Shown here in pieces: positions 702 through 29,300 of a DNA stretch of 53,693 nucleotides. Location of the stretch: UHGV virus genome UHGV-0129084. One strand, 5' to 3'. The notes below the pieces were generated by a model. The model saw only the letters and a program-made list of their open reading frames with translations. It ran no database searches and was not told where the DNA came from. Made by a program: the position numbers and the translations under genes. The stretch comes from a virus. Positions within the stretch are counted from its first letter, which is position 1; each line of letters opens with the position of its first letter.

Positions 702-1286
702 ATAAACTCCTGAATCAAGCGCCGCGCCGATTTTTTTCCTCGCGCGTGCGCACACGCGTGCGTGTTAATAATTATTAAAATAAACAAATTACTTCCCAGA
801 ACAGGTTTTAATAAAACCTGAACTGAACGAACGAAGTGAGTGAAGTTCACCTCGAACGAAGTGAGAGGTTGTCTTTTCAGGTAATACTCTCCCAGGGAGG
901 TGAGTACAAAATTTCCTCACCAACCTGGTCGTTTCATAACCTGAAAAGTTATGACCTAAGTCTACTGTCAGCTTAGGCTTGGGAAGTTATGGATGACAGC
1001 ACCCCAGAACCGAGATCTTCCCACACTTTATGAAGGGGAGTACTGGATTCAACCTCTCGAAACACCCCAGACTCGACAATCATAAAGTGACCCTTGTCTC
1101 CGCTCACTTTGGTTCCCCCTTCCCCGACACCTAAACGGCACCGGTTCTACGCTGGTAGTGAGCTTTTTTAAACCTGACGCCAGTGACGCTTACCCCCACC
1201 CATCAGGTCGAGTCTCCAGTCTACGACTGGAAACTATCAGATCTTAGCACTTACAATTCACTTTATGAATAGTTTGTACTTATCTA

Positions 1287-1541
1287 TCATTTCGATTGAT
1301 TATTTTCTCGACCATGTAGTTGAACATTCAAGGCAAACACCTCGTTAATCAACTCACCTAAAAGCTGTTCAACAAGTTCGCGATGCTCCCCAAGATGCAA
1401 GCACTTAATTGCCCATTCGTACAAGTTGAAAGCCTGCTCGCGATCTTTCATCATTTCACGGGCCTGGGCCAGAAAATCGCTCTCTACGAGCGCAACGACA
1501 TTAGTCGGGTATGACATGTTGGTTTCCTTAAAGTGGTTCAT
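1287..1541 (-). CDS. Hypothetical protein (84 aa)
   Basis: Intact ORF in the same orientation as neighbours; no recognisable motif. Confidence 0.35.
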   Translation of the reverse strand: MNHFKETNMSYPTNVVALVESDFLAQAREMMKDREQAFNLYEWAIKCLHLGEHRELVEQLLGELINEVFALNVQLHGRENNQSK

Positions 1542-1623
1542 AAAATCGATTTTAAAGCGTCTGGGAAGGGGTTCTAGTGGATTCTGTAGTGATGTTCAGG
1601 TCTGGAGTCTCTGATACAAAGCT

Positions 1624-1680
1624 GCCTGCTTCCGTATATTAATAATTAATATGTAGTTATTTATATATACAGAAGCAGGC
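1624..1680. repeat. Inverted-repeat element (16-bp arms, 25-bp AT-rich spacer), copy 1
   Basis: GCCTGCTTCCGTATAT ... ATATACAGAAGCAGGC. Confidence 0.6.
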
Positions 1681-1702
1681 TAATTACAGACGCCAGAACA
1701 AA

Positions 1703-2296
1703 CTAAGCAGCCTTCTTTGATGGTCTTTTTTTCCTGATCACATTCGCAGGATCATACCCTCCCAGACTTTTCATGACGTCCAAAGGGATCTTGCTTATAG
1801 AGTGCCCAGCGTCCTGACAGAATCCTCGAAAAACAACGAGCATACTGCCACCTGGGTTGATGTTTACTTCTACCTGACCCAGATTTACGTCAGGCTCGAC
1901 AAACGCTACGCGGCCACCAGACAGAATAATCGTCTCATTCGCACACTCTGTTGCACGCTCATACCACTTTGTATCTAGGGATTGAGGAATTAGCATCACT
2001 GTTGTAACTCCGCGAGCCTGCTCACGTATAGCCGCATCAATCCAGGGGTAGATTTTGGAGTAGGGTGGATTGAGGAAGGCAATTGTACCTGGCTGTCCCC
2101 ATTCAGATTTCAAAGCATCACGCTCAACGCCTATGAAATTAGGCAGCTTTGCATTGTCCTTGTTGCAGGCAACGTCAACATCAAATGTCACTCCAAGATA
2201 ACGTTGAATGGCAGAAAACAGCCAGTCAGGTGTTCTCCAGAGGTCACGAAGAGAGTTGTCGCGCTTTCGCTGTTTGATTTTTTCGGCTGCAATCAT
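1703..2296 (-). CDS. DNA N6-adenine methyltransferase (phage Dam-like)
   Basis: 197 aa; catalytic NPPY motif (FLNPPYS) of amino-MTases; small size typical of phage orphan Dam enzymes. Confidence 0.7.
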   Translation of the reverse strand: MIAAEKIKQRKRDNSLRDLWRTPDWLFSAIQRYLGVTFDVDVACNKDNAKLPNFIGVERDALKSEWGQPGTIAFLNPPYSKIYPWIDAAIREQARGVTTVMLIPQSLDTKWYERATECANETIILSGGRVAFVEPDVNLGQVEVNINPGGSMLVVFRGFCQDAGHSISKIPLDVMKSLGGYDPANVIRKKRPSKKAA

Positions 2297-2479
2297 CTTC
2301 TTTCTCTATAGGTAAGTATATACCTATTTTTGCATTTGATTTTATGTCTGGCAATCAAATAAAACGCGCCAGAAATGCAAACGAGAAGCTCTCTGGCGCG
2401 TTTTTGTGGTGCTGGGTATGTGATTGGCTTACCCAGTACTATAAAGCTCTCTATGGGCTTTATTTTAAGTAGGGGAACG

Positions 2480-3289
2480 TCATCCAATAGTGTACTCCGC
2501 GACAAACTTCTTAACGATCGGTGATTCTTCGTTCAATGTTAGATTTCCACCGTCTCTAACGGCAATTCCTGTCGCTGGAAATACAGCCATCATTTGCCCA
2601 GCCTGAGTTGACGCAGTATTAAGCGGATACGGTTTTTCTGGATTGCTCATTAAAGCAATCTTAATACTATTACTTGTAGCCTTCTTTTCTGTGAGAAGGT
2701 GTCTCATGGAAATTATCGTGTAAACACTAATATCTGGACCTCCGCTAAACCAATTAAGAAGGTTTAATATCTTATCCTTTGCTTTGACAGGCGCGTTATC
2801 GTAAGCGTCTAAGAAAATATCTTTTTCTAAGCCCGCTTTATTGAAAAACGAATCATCTTTATCACTTAAAGTAAAACGAGGACCTCTTGCAGTACGAGCT
2901 TTTTTATTTGTATTGCTATCATTTGACTGTTGAACTTTTAATTCATCATTAACCTCAACACACTCTTCAACCTCAATAAATCCCAATTGTTCTGGCTCGT
3001 TTTCGACAGCTTCAACACTTTCAGCGTTAATTACGTTTATAGGCTCATGCGCTAACTCCAACTCATTTAAAGCAGAGCTGAAATCACCTGCTTTTTCTTC
3101 ATTGAACAGTTCTTCGGCAACATCATCAGAACTCATGGCTACGCCAGCATCTAGGCCGAGCAGCAGATCGTCAATATCATCAGTATTTTCAACCTGTGCA
3201 GCTTTTTTTACTGGTTCATCAAGTGATTGCAACATGGCTGTCAGCTCGTCCAGATCAGCATTTGTCATTATATTTTCAACCGAACTCAT
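2480..3289 (-). CDS. Hypothetical protein with strongly acidic N-terminal half
   Basis: 269 aa; first ~130 residues very rich in D/E (e.g. NTDDIDDLLLGLDAG, VEAVENEPEQLGFIEVEECVEVNDE), C-terminal half neutral. Confidence 0.45.
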   Translation of the reverse strand: MSSVENIMTNADLDELTAMLQSLDEPVKKAAQVENTDDIDDLLLGLDAGVAMSSDDVAEELFNEEKAGDFSSALNELELAHEPINVINAESVEAVENEPEQLGFIEVEECVEVNDELKVQQSNDSNTNKKARTARGPRFTLSDKDDSFFNKAGLEKDIFLDAYDNAPVKAKDKILNLLNWFSGGPDISVYTIISMRHLLTEKKATSNSIKIALMSNPEKPYPLNTASTQAGQMMAVFPATGIAVRDGGNLTLNEESPIVKKFVAEYTIG

Positions 3290-3410
3290 GTAAGTCTCCT
3301 TCTGTTTGGTTACATTTGCGTTTCGATGGCTGCATTTTGACTAAACCTATCAGGCGGAAAAGTATTAAATACAGGCAGGAAATGATTGAAAGGCGACTGT
3401 TCTTTAAAAA

Positions 3411-3445
3411 AAAAGCCTACTTTAAACTTTTTAAAGTAGGCTTTT
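3411..3445. terminator. Bidirectional rho-independent terminator
   Basis: 16-bp stem AAAAGCCTACTTTAAA / TTTAAAGTAGGCTTTT with 3-nt loop, A-run upstream and T-run downstream. Confidence 0.65.
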
Positions 3446-3448
3446 GTT

Positions 3449-4006
3449 TTACACAATTTCAGAGGGCAATTTAAAAAATCCGTACTTATTACGTGCCTTA
3501 AAGAAGCATTGCATCATTAAGTTTGTGTCATATAAGGCACTATGTGCTTTGGCATGATCGTATATAAAGCCAAGAGAGAAGGCCAACTCTTCAAGGCGGG
3601 GACGTTTACCGTCTTCTGTGGCCCACAATCCCGATAACATAGTATCTATAACAGGAACTTCTGGCAGTCTTACTCCATACCCTGAAAACTCGTGTCGAAT
3701 AAATGGTATATCAAATGCTTCGCCGTTATGAGCAACCCACACACTACATGCCCCCATATAAGCGCCAATTTCGCTGGCATGATTTGACAACAAAGGTTCA
3801 GCTGCGAGCTGTTCCAATGAAATGCCATGAACGGCTTGAGCTTTCGGATCTATGTTTCTGCGAGGGTTAAAACGCATCTCCAGACTATCAATATGTCTCT
3901 GTGTCTCCAGTTCATAGCGGGTAATTGCGATTTCAATAATTTTATGACCAGCAAGGAAATCCAGTCCCGTAGACTCGATATCGATGCCTGCAACAATCGT
4001 TGTCAT
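3449..4006 (-). CDS. DnaQ-like 3'-5' exonuclease (DEDDh family), candidate proofreading subunit
   Basis: Exo I GIDIESTGL, Exo II HNGEAFDIPF, Exo III HSALYDT motifs in correct order; 185 aa. Confidence 0.75.
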   Translation of the reverse strand: MTTIVAGIDIESTGLDFLAGHKIIEIAITRYELETQRHIDSLEMRFNPRRNIDPKAQAVHGISLEQLAAEPLLSNHASEIGAYMGACSVWVAHNGEAFDIPFIRHEFSGYGVRLPEVPVIDTMLSGLWATEDGKRPRLEELAFSLGFIYDHAKAHSALYDTNLMMQCFFKARNKYGFFKLPSEIV

Positions 4007-4015
4007 CAGAACTCC

Positions 4016-4435
4016 TTACAACTTCTTAGCGCCCTTAAGTAGTGCGCTACGTACAAATTGAGCCGCTTTTTTCAAAGTTTCTTCACTGGTTTCACAGACA
4101 ATCGGATCTTTCCACTTACCTGACACAGTGTTGAGAATATTGATTTGGTTGCTATCCAGACAAACAGAGATATAAAGCACCGTGCCACCAGCCAGCATCA
4201 AATGCATAGGAAACAGAGGCTTTTTACTGCCTTCACTGAACTGAGACATGGCGATGTTAATGGCTTCACCCACTTGTGTACCAACAAGCCCCTGCGCAGT
4301 TTCGAATATGGCACGAATAGCCAGACGAGCCTCTCGATCGCTCATAAGCGACCGGGAATGTTCGTCCGCTACACGAATCAAAGCCTCTGTTGTTTTCCGA
4401 TCCAGTTCATCTTCAAGCAACATTTCACTAAACAT
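4016..4435 (-). CDS. Hypothetical protein (139 aa)
   Basis: Intact ORF between exonuclease and kinase genes; no recognised motif. Confidence 0.4.
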   Translation of the reverse strand: MFSEMLLEDELDRKTTEALIRVADEHSRSLMSDREARLAIRAIFETAQGLVGTQVGEAINIAMSQFSEGSKKPLFPMHLMLAGGTVLYISVCLDSNQINILNTVSGKWKDPIVCETSEETLKKAAQFVRSALLKGAKKL

Positions 4436-4496
4436 TTTTTATCCTTAACCCATTTTGAGAGTTTTATTGTCGCAATGTCGAAGAGGCGAACAATTT

Positions 4497-5141
4497 CTAA
4501 TGAACGGTCACTCGGCCACAGAACCGGTTTTCTATCTTTTCTACAGCGTTATCTAGCATTCTCATCACTGATCTGGCTCTTGCTTCAACCGTGCGATATC
4601 GGTTGGAAACGACGAAGGTTTGCAGATCTCCCCTTTGCGGATGCAGGTGAATTTTTGTCAGTTCCCCGCACATCAACGCATCAATACGAGCGACATACAG
4701 ACGGTCTAATGATGCTCGTTGTGATCGCAAGTAATCTCGCTCTGAGAGAGCGACTCCCGGGCGTAAGCCAGCAATGGCGTTAAAGTTTGAAATAGCAGTT
4801 TTGTGGCAAAACTTTTCGATATCGAGGGCTAACTCAATACACCGATCTTCATTTGTATGGCCGACCAAATCCAACGTGTAGGCCATAACATCAGCAGGTG
4901 TGCGATCGATAACAAAGCCTTCAACACCACGCGTAAGTAGCTCTATATGCTTTGCTATTTCCATTTGAATCTGAAGCCGCTCATATAGAGGCATAGAATC
5001 ACCTACTCGAACACCGAGGCGGCTCATCAAACTTCCGACACCAGCATCCACGTAAGGGATTCCGTAATGTTTGTCGATATATTTAGCCAGGGTTGTTTTC
5101 CCACTGCCCTGAGCACCAGTGATCCCAATCCGGTAATCCAT
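4497..5141 (-). CDS. P-loop nucleotide kinase-like protein (possible dNMP kinase)
   Basis: N-terminal Walker A GITGAQGSGKTTLA; 214 aa; start overlaps DHFR stop (ATGA at 5141). Confidence 0.5.
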   Translation of the reverse strand: MDYRIGITGAQGSGKTTLAKYIDKHYGIPYVDAGVGSLMSRLGVRVGDSMPLYERLQIQMEIAKHIELLTRGVEGFVIDRTPADVMAYTLDLVGHTNEDRCIELALDIEKFCHKTAISNFNAIAGLRPGVALSERDYLRSQRASLDRLYVARIDALMCGELTKIHLHPQRGDLQTFVVSNRYRTVEARARSVMRMLDNAVEKIENRFCGRVTVH

Positions 5142-5617
5142 TACGACCTTCTGTATACGATCTGCGAAAAGCCAGGCTCTTCCTCGCTGGCTCGTTGGGT
5201 ATAAGCTGTTTCAACAGGCACAAAGCCTAAATTACGCATCATGCTTGCAGGGAAGAATGCATCGGCGTTTGGCACATCAACGCCGATGTGGGAGAGCCAA
5301 ATCTCTTCAACATGCGGCATGAATAGCGAGTAAATTTGTTCCCCGCCAATCACCCACACAGGCTCTGGTAATCGCAACACATCATCCACACCAGCAGGGT
5401 AGAATCCATTTGGTACAAAGCCATGAGAGCGCGTCAAAACGAGGTTATGACGCTCTGGAAGAGGGCGTTTGAGACTTTCCATCGTTTTACGCCCCATAAC
5501 GACAGTGGCGTTTTTGGTGAGTCTCTTAAATAGCTTCAGATCGGTAGAACAACGCCAGGGTAGTTCATTCGCTATGCCGATCTCATAGTTACGGCCAACA
5601 GCAGCTATCATCTTCAT
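5141..5617 (-). CDS. folA: Dihydrofolate reductase
   Basis: 158 aa; MIAAVGRNYEIG...LPW...VVMGRKT pattern diagnostic of DHFR. Confidence 0.85.
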   Translation of the reverse strand: MKMIAAVGRNYEIGIANELPWRCSTDLKLFKRLTKNATVVMGRKTMESLKRPLPERHNLVLTRSHGFVPNGFYPAGVDDVLRLPEPVWVIGGEQIYSLFMPHVEEIWLSHIGVDVPNADAFFPASMMRNLGFVPVETAYTQRASEEEPGFSQIVYRRS

Positions 5618-6027
5618 TTGCTCACCTCATAGATGACCGGTCGATGGTGAGAGTCAGCTAAAGCGGCACGGAGTCGAGGATCGTGCACCAGCGCAGCGAT
5701 AAGCAGATCGCCTTTATGCTCCGCTAATGTGCGCTTAATATGCTTCTCATAACTGGTGCCATTCGGTACTAGATGAAGCCAGTCATAATCAACACCAAAA
5801 TCTTTCAGCCATCGTTTAGTGGGCGCTTCAAGAGTTTCAGAGCGGCTACTGATAAGCACCACTTCAGCCCCTGAGCGAGCAAAACCACGCAACATACGGC
5901 TGGTGGGGAAAATGAGTTCATCACCGGCAATGAATTGGCCTGCATCCGAGTCAGATACAGATTTACGATGGCTGGTATTTGCCAGCACACCTTCAATTTC
6001 GCATAAGACATACATACCTCTTGCCAT
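5614..6027 (-). CDS. Hypothetical protein, possibly HAD-like phosphatase/nucleotidase
   Basis: ORF 5614..6123 overlaps thyA; start moved to in-frame ATG at 6027 (MARGMYVLCEIEGVL), 1 nt after the thyA stop; LCEIEGVL loosely resembles HAD motif I with D->E. Confidence 0.3.
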   Translation of the reverse strand: MARGMYVLCEIEGVLANTSHRKSVSDSDAGQFIAGDELIFPTSRMLRGFARSGAEVVLISSRSETLEAPTKRWLKDFGVDYDWLHLVPNGTSYEKHIKRTLAEHKGDLLIAALVHDPRLRAALADSHHRPVIYEVSK

Positions 6028-6028
6028 A

Positions 6029-7159
6029 TCACACCGCCACTGGAACCTTGATCCACGGTAGAGGGGCATAGCCAAGAATAAGAATCTCGTCCCATTTGAA
6101 ATCATCCAGCTCAGACCATTCATTAGGGAATATAACGACCGGATCTGAATGCTCTGGAGCCTGTCGTTGCATTAGCTCACACACACCTTCCATGTGGTTG
6201 TTGTACAAATGCACGTCAAAGCCAAAATGCACAAATGCACCGGCCATGTGACCCGTAATCTTCGCGAGAAAATGAGTGAGAATGCCATAGCCAGCAATAT
6301 TGAATGGCATACCAACAAAAGTGTCTACGCTACGCTGTACGAGGCAGGAGTTGAGGATGCGTTTGGGGATTCCAAGTGCATCCAGTTCAGTTTCAGTAAC
6401 ACTGCCGTCCATCTCCAGATCGTATAGCATCTTGGTGTAGATAGACTCATAACCGAGGCGACTGTGTTGAAGACCAATGTCAGTTGCCATCGTTAAACGG
6501 GTTTCAAAATCCAGTTCACGACTCCACAAAGAGAAGACAAAGTGGCAAGGTGGCAGTTTCATATCCTCAAGCTCGCCTACGTTCCATGCGTTAAGCATGA
6601 TGCGACGATCGGTAGGGTTCGTGCGCAGTGTATCGACAATACGCTGTAGCTGATCGATTTCACGGGACAGCACTACGCGATCTTCACTGATACCCAGGTA
6701 TCCCTCGACTTTGTACCCGCGTTCACGGAAAGTAGCGATCTTGCTCAGATATTCACTATGGCTCACGATGCGGGTATCTTCCCATCGACGCCACTGCTTA
6801 CCGTAAACCGGCCCCAAATCGCCATTCTCATCGGCCCATGCATCCCAAATCTTAACGCCGTTATCCTTGAGAAATTGGATGTTGCCCGTGCCTTTCAGAT
6901 ACCACTCAAGTTCGACAAGCAGTGGCTTAAGATTTACCGCCTTTCCAGAAATAAGCGGCACAGTCCCACCAGTAAGCATGTAGTAAGAGGGAACGTAGCA
7001 GGTGCTTAAAGTACCAGTGCCTGTGCGATCATCAGCCTGCACGCCGCTTTTAAGCACCGTCTCAATAACTTTTGCATACGATGCGTTTGTTACCTGACCG
7101 TTCGTATGCTCACGATTCAAAAGGAGTGACACAAAAACCTCACAAAGATAAGTAACCAC
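6029..7159 (-). CDS. thyA: Thymidylate synthase (ThyA) with two internal insertions
   Basis: DRTGTGT, LLVELEWYLKG, GDLGPVYGKQWRRW, catalytic LPPCH; 376 aa, longer than typical ThyA. Start uncertain: ORF begins with GTG at 7159, alternative GTG at 7132. Confidence 0.85.
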   Translation of the reverse strand: MVTYLCEVFVSLLLNREHTNGQVTNASYAKVIETVLKSGVQADDRTGTGTLSTCYVPSYYMLTGGTVPLISGKAVNLKPLLVELEWYLKGTGNIQFLKDNGVKIWDAWADENGDLGPVYGKQWRRWEDTRIVSHSEYLSKIATFRERGYKVEGYLGISEDRVVLSREIDQLQRIVDTLRTNPTDRRIMLNAWNVGELEDMKLPPCHFVFSLWSRELDFETRLTMATDIGLQHSRLGYESIYTKMLYDLEMDGSVTETELDALGIPKRILNSCLVQRSVDTFVGMPFNIAGYGILTHFLAKITGHMAGAFVHFGFDVHLYNNHMEGVCELMQRQAPEHSDPVVIFPNEWSELDDFKWDEILILGYAPLPWIKVPVAV

Positions 7160-26365: not shown

Positions 26366-29300
26366 TCACGACTTAATAGTTTCTGCTACGTCGGCTAATA
26401 TCGCTTCTAGTCGTTCTCCCTCTTCAGGTCTGAAGTAAAGAATGTTGGGGTTAAACCCGTAAAAGACAGTAACGTCAAGGTCTGGAAGATACTCCTTCCT
26501 GCCGACCAAATCGGATGGCTTGTTTTTGTTGTTAAACAATGAAGTTGCCCGGCTGCCACACGTCAGCACATAGGTCGGACGCACCAGATTGATCTCTTCA
26601 CGCATAAAGTCGGTGAACTGGCCGATCTCGTCTTTGGTGTAGTCTTTTTCTTTGTCTTTAACCTTCTTGCAAACACCTGTGACATAGAGATCGCCCATGC
26701 GTAAATCTCCAGCCGTCAATAGCTTGGCCTTAAAGTCGTCGTATCCGTTCTCCATAAAGTAACCGGTTCGAGCATCATTGCCGTTCGCATTGTCCAGAAT
26801 GATCATGATTTTCGGCTTAATACCAATGCTGGGGCGGATTAGTTCATCACCTAAGCCCATTTCAGCCGCCATCCGCGTCATGAGTACGTTAATTTCAGCC
26901 GAACGTTTGGGGTTCATCTCAAACGGACGTGAGGCTTTAACTGCGTCTATGACAAGGTTTCCCATCAATTCAGCTTGGTCGCGTAGGCGCTCTGGATCAG
27001 TTGCTGGCAGACTGCCTGGCTCGATGGATGCAAACGCCCCTACTTTTTGCAGCGATTCGCGCACTCGACTATTACAGGCACGTTTCTCGACAGCTTCTTC
27101 GAATTGCGCCAGTGACTCGAATTTGCCGCCAACTTTTTCTCGCGCTCTCATGATGGCTTGGCAGCCATTCTCAGAACACCCTTTCACAGCAGAGAAGGGC
27201 GCATACAGCACCTGGCTGCCATCTTCAAGCGTGCGGATCTCGATTCGGTTAGATGACACGTTAACGTCTGGTGGCAATACGCGAATACCATAGGTCAGCG
27301 CATCTTTAACCAGCCCCTGGTGTTTATCTTCGCCAAGAATAGTGAGAGCAGCAGCGAAGAACTCCGCGGGATAATGAGTTTTCAACCACATAGATTGATA
27401 ACTGATTAAGGAGTAAGCAACAGAGTGTGATTTGTTGAACTGGTAGGCACCATTCTTTTCGAATGCGGTCCAGATCTCCTTCGCTTTCATCTCTGATAGC
27501 CCTGGATGTGACGCTGTAACGCGTACTGCGTTTATAGGTAGTTTTGCGCCGTACTCAAGTGCCTCTTCGACAGTTTTCAGAGTTCCGTCTTCGCATTTAA
27601 AATGTTCCGCACGGTGAATGCGCTGTGTAGTGCCATCTTCCAGCTCAACGTCTATCCAGCCAGCTTGAGCCTGAACGATGAACTTCTCGCCCATGCTCTT
27701 CATTTTTTCCATGTCTTTTTTGCCGATCGCTTTACGAACGCCGTCAGCTTCAGCCATTGTGAAGCCAGCAAGCAATCGAGTCGCGTTCATCGTCTGTTCC
27801 TGATAGAGAATCACGCCATTTGTTTCTGCGGTAAGTTCATCAAGAACGGGGTGTAATGATTCCGGCGTCATAAAGCCTTTGGCTACAGAAACATAGTCAT
27901 CCAACATGCCTGACTGAATTGGCCCCGGCCGGAAGAGTGCAGTCGTAGCAACAACCGTTTTAAAGCTCATTGGCTCAATTCCACCACCTAAATCTTTAAG
28001 CAGCTTGCGCATTGGGCCTGATTCAAGCTGGAAAACACCTTGAGTGTACCCAGCAGCAAAACCATCCAGCACCTTGCGATCTTCAAGAGAAATGGCATCA
28101 AGATTGATATCTTCACCTGTGTTCTCTTTTATGTAGCGTTTTGCACTATCGAGCAAATCGAGAGTTGCCAGACCAAGTACGTCCAGCTTAATTAGGCCCA
28201 TAGCCTCGCAGTAACGCTTGTCAAATGCGATACAACGCGCGTCACCACGGCGTTCAACCGGTGTACGTTCTGTCAGAGGAACACCTGCTACGATCATCCC
28301 TGCCGCATGTCTACCAAAGCCACGCATAAGGCTTTGTAACTTGCAGGCTGCATTGAATGCATCAGGATATTTTGTTGCGTATTTGTCGAGACTTGCCAGT
28401 TGTTCGCGCAACTCTTCCAATGGAAGGCTATCATCCTCGACGTTCTTCAGTTCTTTTGATACCGCCATATCTGCGGACTCCACACCATAAATACGAGCGG
28501 TGTCACGTAGTGCAGAGGCTGCGCCCAGGTAGGTGAAGTTCGGAATGCCTGCAACGTAATCTTCGCCGTAGCGTTCATTCAGATACTCGATCACCTCATG
28601 GCGACGTGCCTGGCTGAAGTCCAAGTCCGCATCCGGCAAGTCGAGACGCTCAGGGTTGATGAAACGCTCAAACAGAAGACCGTGACGGATTGGGTCGACG
28701 TTGGTTATGCCTATGCACCACGCCACCAGAGAACCGGCAGAGGAACCACGACCAGGCCCAACGGGAATGCCAGTTTCACGACTATGATTCATCAGATCGC
28801 GCACCATCAGGAAGTAACCACAGAATCCCAGGCGAGTCAGCGTGTCCATTTCGTACTTTAGCCGCTCAACATAAACCCTGTTCTCAGAAGCAGGTGGTGT
28901 GTATCCAAACTCTTTTGTGGTAAGACGTTTACGCAGCCCTGCAACAGCCAGTTTCATCAGCGTTGCAGGTTCGTCGTCTGCCATCTTGGGCAGTGCTGGT
29001 GGCAATTCATGCCAGCGCCATGTGCAGGCATCGATAATGGAGTCCTGCGTTGTTGAGGCCATTGCAGCTGTTACCGGCACATCCATGCGAACGGAGAAGG
29101 CTTTAAGCGCCTCAAGGAGATGGCGACGACCATTGATGGCGTTATCTCGCTGGTGGGGGATACGCAGACGATGCGGCTGGTCGATTTTGATGTTGTTCGT
29201 AACCATGTGCGCAATGTCTTTAATGTCTGCATCGTCGATCGATTCGTAATAAGCGGGATAGAACGCCACTGGCTCTATTTTCAATGCGCTGGCGACTTTC

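Follow-up and report, generated by a model that had tools for sequence, protein, structure and literature searches.

A conserved acidic-arm, winged-helix protein and an orphan adenine methylase at the edge of the replication block of an SSU5-type phage-plasmid

Locus and genome setting

A 53,693-nucleotide stretch of viral DNA, virus genome UHGV-0129084 (hereafter the window, meaning that whole stretch), carries two adjacent minus-strand genes between positions 1703 and 3289. The first encodes an orphan phage N6-adenine DNA methyltransferase of 197 amino acids (1703..2296; PF05869, TIGR01712, phrog_111), and the second, upstream of it, encodes a 269-amino-acid protein with a strongly acidic N-terminal arm and a predicted C-terminal winged-helix domain (2480..3289; PHROG 5235, the C-terminal domain also matching PHROG 3932). 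Both open reading frames (ORFs) are present at these coordinates, and an AGGAG ribosome-binding site, read from the sequence, precedes the acidic-protein gene (3296-3300, minus strand). A preliminary description had proposed that the two form an anti-restriction pair, in which the acidic protein would act as a DNA mimic of the Ocr/ArdA class. The reading that best fits the evidence is that they are two independent genes of the lytic programme of an SSU5-type phage-plasmid and do not constitute a two-gene anti-restriction module.

Window bases 1200-4500 are 97.3-99.5% identical to the Escherichia phages CMS-2020a, Cyrano and PhiR41_1, which are 108-109 kb elements of the SSU5/pHCM2 phage-plasmid type, and by this identity the window belongs to an element of the same type. 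According to the Cyrano and SSU5 annotation, the acidic-protein and methylase genes close a minus-strand block ordered as ribonucleotide reductase, MazG, ThyA, PNK-like, DHFR, kinase, hypothetical protein, epsilon-like exonuclease, acidic protein and adenine methylase; beyond the methylase follow a small hypothetical protein and then RNase H. The annotation of related genomes thus agrees with the earlier placement of both genes at one end of a replication block, here one of replication and nucleotide metabolism. In the transcriptome of the LF82 lysogen, the Cyrano genes listed as lysogeny-expressed exclude the two homologues CYRAN_78 and CYRAN_79 (PMC9928086). Their absence from that list is compatible with lytic-phase genes and does not discriminate between the explanations considered below.

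Architecture of the acidic protein

Residues 1-125 (2915..3289, minus strand) make up the acidic arm, as delimited by composition, AlphaFold prediction and charge-hydropathy analysis. They hold 34 Asp/Glu against 4 Lys/Arg residues, a net charge of -30, which confirms the initial remark that the N-terminal ~130 residues are densely acidic. The isoelectric point (pI) is ~4.05 for residues 1-130 and ~8.8 for residues 131-269. This acidity is a true outlier, because among the 62 stop-to-stop frames in the window that reach 125 codons just one other, CobT, contains an equally acidic 125-residue stretch (-32; the next reaches -15). The charge density is comparable to that of Ocr.

Two AlphaFold runs, with alignments of 22 and 145 sequences, gave results that agree. 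Residues 10-80 were modelled as three or four helices (10-31, 36-50, 54-63 and 70-80) with a moderate predicted local distance difference test score (pLDDT) of 60-85, and residues 81-135 were low-confidence, with pLDDT block means of 29-69 in the two models. By charge-hydropathy analysis, residues 1-135 likewise fall on the disordered side (H 0.449 vs a boundary of 0.482) and residues 140-269 on the folded side. The arm also evolves quickly: mean pairwise identity among SSU5-type homologues is 54% over residues 1-25, 29% over 51-80 and 17% over 81-135, as compared with 69% over residues 166-269, and the length of the acidic segment varies from 78 to 130 residues among close homologues. Its charge is nevertheless maintained, since 125 of 145 family representatives (at most 50% mutual identity; median length of the N-terminal region, 152 residues) keep a strong net negative arm.

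Short amphipathic motifs are the other conserved property of the arm. The first LDxLLxxL-like acidic motif, DLDELTAMLQSLDE (residues 12-25; 3215..3256, minus strand), is its best-conserved piece, and a second copy of the same type, DIDDLLLGLDAG (residues 38-49; 3143..3178, minus strand), is supported by the homologue alignment, in which IDDLL.GLD is conserved; its counterpart in the relative P0010, IDDLLSGL, is scored by the motif pattern. A strict pattern detected the motif within the first 60 residues in 55 of the 145 representatives, compared with ~10 in shuffled sequences. Over whole arms it is 5.5-fold enriched relative to shuffles, and at least two copies occur in 15 proteins where 0.7 would be expected. 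The N-terminal motif (for example ELDALLADLD in relatives) resembles the CheY-binding EIDALL-type peptide of FliM, as well as eukaryotic LD motifs; the single match of the family profile among PDB sequences, of the arm to the disordered N-terminus of FliN, was non-significant (E 0.11). As judged from these alignments, the acidic character is selected as a property, that is, charge plus short motifs, and not as a fold. The retention of charge and motifs while the sequence drifts suits a functional disordered arm and not a rigid mimic.

A basic linker, NTNKKARTARGPRF (residues 126-139; 2873..2914, minus strand), directly precedes the folded domain. It includes the KKARTARGPRF patch, and its K/R..RF pattern is conserved in both alignments (A1 and A2) and in the family consensus. 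The C-terminal domain itself (residues 140-269; 2483..2872, minus strand) was confidently predicted by AlphaFold (pLDDT 93-99). The predicted model has winged-helix topology (helix-strand-helix-helix-beta-hairpin) and structural likeness to known members of that fold, with residues 223-240 as the putative recognition helix. K173, T225 and Q232 are invariant across the family, and K169, N176, S188, Y190, T191, Y221 and Q229 are nearly so; by their spacing, K169/K173/N176 and T225/Q229/Q232 would each lie on one face of a helix. The median charge of the domain is +4 across the 145 representatives.

Compared with ArsR/SmtB, Fur, BlaI/MecI, MarR and the globular domain of histone H1/H5, the domain shares 4-17% sequence identity, and none of the Pfam winged-helix families gave a hidden Markov model (HMM) match to it. 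It further differs from these winged helices in three added N-terminal helices (residues 146-181), which carry K169/K173/N176, and in an added C-terminal helix, while no dimerization or metal-binding module is evident in it. Bacterial winged-helix repressors are its best structural matches, and the domain is basic, both of which would suit a conventional, sequence-specific regulator of lytic transcription whose acidic region is a dispensable low-complexity spacer. We consider such a regulator distinctly unlikely. The charge and N-terminal motif of the arm are conserved across 145 distant representatives, which argues that the arm is under selection and is no spacer. Also, the residues of the putative recognition helix scarcely change between phages of Enterobacteria, Pseudomonas, Aeromonas, Stenotrophomonas and Rhizobium, an unusual pattern if operators co-evolve with their genomes.

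A widespread family

The acidic protein matches PHROG 5235 over its full length (E 1.5e-147), and its C-terminal domain matches PHROG 3932 (E 5.4e-15). All 33 diverse relatives examined match both of these PHROGs, whose functions are unassigned; none of the 33 has a Pfam match, and the acidic protein itself has none at E<=0.01. Searches of Pfam, NCBIfam, PADLOC and PDB sequences with the protein and its family profile returned no significant match. Close family members are restricted to ~105-120 kb contigs from Enterobacteriaceae, and every source calls them 'hypothetical protein'.

The domain reaches much further. When 1.84 billion representatives at 50% clustering were searched with a C-terminal-domain profile, 644 proteins matched at E<=1e-3, and in nearly all of the 150 matches listed the domain is C-terminal in a protein of ~200-340 residues. 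The three-part build of acidic arm, basic linker and winged helix recurs in 145 diverse relatives, which come from siphoviruses and phage-plasmids of ~105-120 kb. Within the phage collection, the family was found in ~30 records, including SSU5-type elements, Pseudomonas Nickievirus, and 108-122 kb Stenotrophomonas and Rhizobium phages, and it is also carried by similar Aeromonas elements. A profile scan for distant loci returned SSU5-type loci alone, and a scan with a degenerate DNA pattern returned 23 mostly short loci. Its members are syntenic core genes in SSU5-type phage-plasmids, among them those of Salmonella Typhi, E. coli, Klebsiella and Aeromonas. The family is uncharacterised, with no member named, but widespread and well-defined.

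The orphan adenine methylase

The methylase is identified by Pfam PF05869 'Dam' (E 2.9e-38; 131.6 bits against a cutoff of 28.1), by NCBIfam TIGR01712 'phage N-6-adenine-methyltransferase' (113.2 bits, above the equivalog cutoff of 97.05) and by phrog_111 (E 8e-65), and its best PADLOC matches are 'orphan methyltransferase' models. Its motif IV, NPPY, is intact (residues 76-79; nucleotides 2060-2071, minus strand). Relatives were detected in 1969 phage records by tblastn, those of Stx and lambdoid phages being ~39% identical to it, and among solved structures there was no sequence match. The neighbours within ~5 kb are RNase H, proteins of 84 and 139 amino acids, the epsilon-like exonuclease, a kinase, DHFR and ThyA; no restriction-type nuclease was found among them by Pfam and PHROG searches or in the annotation of related records. 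The enzyme counts as an orphan because no such nuclease lies in this neighbourhood, and the earlier identification of a Dam-like methyltransferase lacking a restriction partner stands on both the curated scores and the gene context.

The PF05869/TIGR01712 family includes the Dam-type enzymes of T1, HP1 and Stx phages. The window enzyme resembles the phage orphan enzymes of this family in its curated HMM scores, small size, NPPY motif and lack of a nuclease, and no notable difference from them was seen. Hia5-type enzymes constitute a subfamily of their own with FxGxG and DPPY motifs, and an identity as a Hia5-type non-specific adenine methylase was accordingly dropped. GATC specificity is assumed for the enzyme. 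The GATC observed/expected ratio of 0.88 in the window, neither depleted nor enriched, is unremarkable, so composition gives no signal on specificity. The methylase is an ordinary member of a very common phage family and as such brings nothing new. Its most likely function is the one generic to that family, methylation of phage DNA as it replicates, for self-protection from restriction and/or methylation-dependent control.

Another putative DNA modification methylase, larger than the first, is encoded in SSU5-type elements a few kb past the RNase H gene, just outside the left end of the window. This is CYRAN_90 of Cyrano (locus L001, 1945-3630), or SSU5_095, a DUF4942-containing protein of ~561 amino acids in Cyrano. 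The Dam-family enzyme is therefore not the sole methylase of the element.

Transcription signals and gene pairing

The spacer between the acidic-protein and methylase genes contains an intrinsic-terminator-like hairpin, AAAAACGCGCCAGA...TCTGGCGCGTTTTATTT (2355..2405, minus strand), identified by RNA folding. Its predicted stability is -27.3 kcal/mol (z = -6.0), and none of 200 shuffles was as stable. Next to it, a consensus scan placed a sigma-70-like promoter candidate for the methylase (2326..2354, minus strand; TTGCCA-17 nt-AAAAAT with an extended TG), a weak one, as promoter-like sites in the region are no more numerous than shuffling predicts. Two further ORFs have been drawn in the same spacer. 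One is a 70-codon frame with a TTG start (2293-2505, minus strand), which spans the terminator, has no family match and looks spurious; the other, of 39 codons, is annotated in PhiR41_1.

Conservation of the arrangement was assessed by searching the collected loci with the domain HMM and with the window exonuclease and methylase, and clustering the winged-helix proteins at 60% identity. Adjacency to the methylase is fixed in all 73 SSU5-type loci with enough flank. Across the family, a PF05869 methylase lies within 3 kb downstream of the winged-helix gene in three of 11 clusters (the SSU5 group, an SSU5-like fragment and locus L012) and is absent in the other eight. In an Aeromonas caviae element, an inserted cassette with a D12-class adenine methylase and two divergent helix-turn-helix (HTH) genes separates the exonuclease block from the winged-helix gene. 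This cassette spans 4920-6806 of locus L118; an A. veronii relative (L119) has no such cassette and carries a RES-Xre toxin-antitoxin pair downstream of the winged-helix gene. Judging by these insertions, the position around the winged-helix gene seems to be a hot spot for accessory genes at the edge of the module; methylases of different families come and go there, as is to be expected of such a site. The pairing of the two genes as a functional unit thus finds no support, as a terminator and a promoter-like site separate them and most relatives outside the SSU5 group have no adjacent methylase, and we infer that they are functionally independent.

A precedent for a closer relationship exists in Stx phage, whose MT-A70 methylase carries the annotation of a DNA adenine methylase. 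It binds 1:1 to PNB-2, a winged-HTH protein encoded upstream, which directs its substrate choice; the enzyme needs this partner and then prefers 16S rRNA (PMC10810198). By analogy, the winged-helix protein of the window could be the targeting or specificity subunit of the small methylase next to it. Both loci have a winged-HTH gene preceding a phage methylase gene, PF05869 enzymes are small (197 amino acids here), and the adjacency is fixed throughout the SSU5-type loci. However, the Stx-phage enzyme (M.EcoPA8orf6770P) is of the DPPW/MT-A70 family and is co-transcribed with PNB-2 in a demonstrated complex, whereas the window enzyme is of the NPPY/PF05869 family and is separated from its neighbour by a strong terminator and a promoter-like site. 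The families also do not co-occur: eight of the 11 winged-helix clusters have no nearby PF05869 gene, and of ~1970 phage records with PF05869 only ~30 were found with the winged-helix family. A two-subunit methylase of the MT-A70 plus PNB-2 type was rejected on these grounds, and the more general idea of a methylase with a targeting subunit stays, on the strength of the precedent, as a minor rival that we regard as hardly probable.

The exonuclease as conserved neighbour

Upstream of the acidic-protein gene lies an epsilon (DnaQ)-like 3'-5' exonuclease of 185 amino acids (3449..4006, minus strand; PF00929, E 6e-22), and the spacer between the two contains a second terminator-like hairpin, a 16-bp stem followed by a T-run (3411..3445, minus strand). 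The exonuclease lies within 3 kb upstream of the winged-helix gene in 10 of the 12 clusters with at least 3 kb of upstream flank. One exception, L007, is a short contig of the A. caviae element, and in the full-length contig the exonuclease is 2.9 kb upstream. The two genes keep the same strand and order, 0-4 genes apart, down to ~23% identity, and Pfam-annotated contexts agree on this order in Nickievirus and the Aeromonas elements. Because the exonuclease is kept upstream while the methylase mostly is not, the conserved neighbour of the winged-helix gene is the exonuclease.

This conserved order, in 10 of 12 clusters and the Aeromonas elements, could mean that the acidic protein is a replisome or repair accessory of the exonuclease, for example a tether to DNA or to a DnaE-type polymerase. 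The exonuclease has its catalytic domain only, matches the DnaQ-type NCBIfam models over that domain and scores far below the epsilon equivalog cutoffs, and an acidic arm with short helical motifs would be typical of a flexible tether. Yet the synteny may have been inherited within one phage lineage, terminators flank the acidic-protein gene on both sides, and many phages without a member of the winged-helix family have DnaE-type polymerases and DnaQ-like exonucleases. We therefore see such a partnership as unlikely. A broader role as a general accessory of DnaE replicases was rejected, since most of the 1213 phage records with a DnaE-type polymerase lack the winged-helix family. With 185 amino acids the exonuclease has no room for a C-terminal polymerase-binding tail, and the DnaE-type polymerase of the phage is encoded at window positions 26366-29884.

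DNA mimicry

The reading from which the anti-restriction pair arose is that the acidic region mimics DNA and titrates defence proteins that bind DNA, be they Type I restriction enzymes or others, with the methylase as its counterpart. Ocr (T7 gp0.3) and ArdA share with the N-terminal 125 residues of the acidic protein a dense Asp/Glu content and a low pI, and a net charge of -30 over that length, conserved though the sequence is not, is what an electrostatic decoy would need. The presence of adenine methylases within 3 kb in three lineages would fit as well, and genes outside the lysogeny-expressed list would suit a lytic or entry phase. The lack of sequence similarity to Ocr and ArdA, conceded from the start, was borne out by Pfam, NCBIfam and PADLOC, which gave no match to these or to other anti-defence or defence models.

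Known DNA mimics are compact, stand-alone proteins, Ocr and ArdA being rigid dimers. The acidic protein differs from them in sequence and in fold: its arm is predicted to be largely disordered, with no rigid charge array, evolves fast, and is fused through the linker to a DNA-binding-type domain. Structure prediction, which had been suggested as a means of detecting mimic-like charge spacing, modelled the arm with low to moderate confidence and without a compact fold, and no DNA-mimic structure appeared among the fold matches. Further, the gene lies in a replication module behind an exonuclease, with its own terminators, and not at a genome end or in a leading region, and most lineages have no adjacent methylase. 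Assignment to the Ocr/ArdA class is thus not supported, and mimicry in partnership with the methylase is very unlikely. Asp/Glu content, however high, predicts DNA mimicry of the Ocr/ArdA type poorly when taken alone.

A variant would have the winged helix tether a disordered polyanionic decoy to the phage genome. Such a protein would represent a new class, in which the domain anchors on the incoming or replicating genome and the arm of ~135 residues, with its LDxLLxxL helices, locally captures or repels host proteins that bind DNA, such as nucleoid proteins, Type I restriction enzymes or further sensors of defence systems. Nothing found here supports this role, which we rate as highly improbable. 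If true, it would mean anti-defence by a disordered, genome-anchored DNA mimic in place of a free, rigid one.

Proposed role of the acidic protein

We moderately favour a reading in which the acidic protein, with its conserved polyanionic arm and the motifs in it, is an adaptor or regulator anchored on nucleic acid. Both its DNA binding and its recruitment of partners are inferred. On this reading, the basic linker and winged helix would bind nucleic acid, most likely phage DNA, and so anchor the protein. The arm, which in the family is long, mostly disordered and furnished with one to three short LDxLLxxL-like amphipathic helices, may recruit or sequester a partner protein through these helical motifs; alternatively, it may fold back and gate DNA binding. 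In either case, the protein would serve the replication and nucleotide-metabolism module as a DNA-anchored adaptor or regulator.

Acidic tails that gate DNA binding and/or recruit partners are found in sigma-70 region 1.1, the acidic tail of HMGB1 and the C-terminal tails of SSB, gp32 and gp2.5. By analogy, the acidic protein shares with these a flexible polyanionic segment on a DNA-binding-type module. Its arm is not homologous to them and differs in being N-terminal, much longer (~135 residues) and equipped with repeated LDxLLxxL-like helices.

Several observations weigh against this interpretation and against the independence of the two genes. The protein has no characterised homologue, and all database names are 'hypothetical protein'. 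Winged helices also mediate contacts between proteins. T225, Q229 and Q232 of the putative recognition helix hardly vary across very distant phages, which is not usual in sequence-specific regulators and might point to a conserved protein partner or to non-specific binding. Three lineages (SSU5, L012 and A. caviae) have an adenine methylase within 3 kb of the gene, from two families in all, slightly more than chance would predict, and terminators can leak. In addition, the carriers all appear to come from a single broad lineage of siphoviruses of 105-120 kb, so the exonuclease synteny may reflect ancestry and not functional coupling. The disparity between 1213 phage records with DnaE and ~30 with the family likewise indicates that the winged-helix protein is no general replicase accessory.

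The conserved build of arm, linker and winged helix makes the acidic protein a clear candidate for partner finding. What it recruits or blocks probably matters for the lytic replication of clinically widespread phage-plasmids.

Other features of the window

Two small conserved proteins with no function assigned flank the region. One is a phrog_5343 protein of 84 amino acids (1287-1541, minus strand); the other, a phrog_5373 protein of 139 amino acids (4016-4435, minus strand), is found just 5' of the exonuclease in several distant lineages. Elsewhere in the window, the most acidic 125-residue stretch (net -32) belongs to a 702-amino-acid CobT/CobT_C (VWA) protein (31396-33504, minus strand), around residues 248-372, between its two Pfam domains. 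Its gene adjoins that of an AAA_5 (CobS-like) ATPase (30065-31300, minus strand). The pair is annotated as cobalamin genes in Cyrano and resembles a MoxR-type ATPase with its VWA partner.

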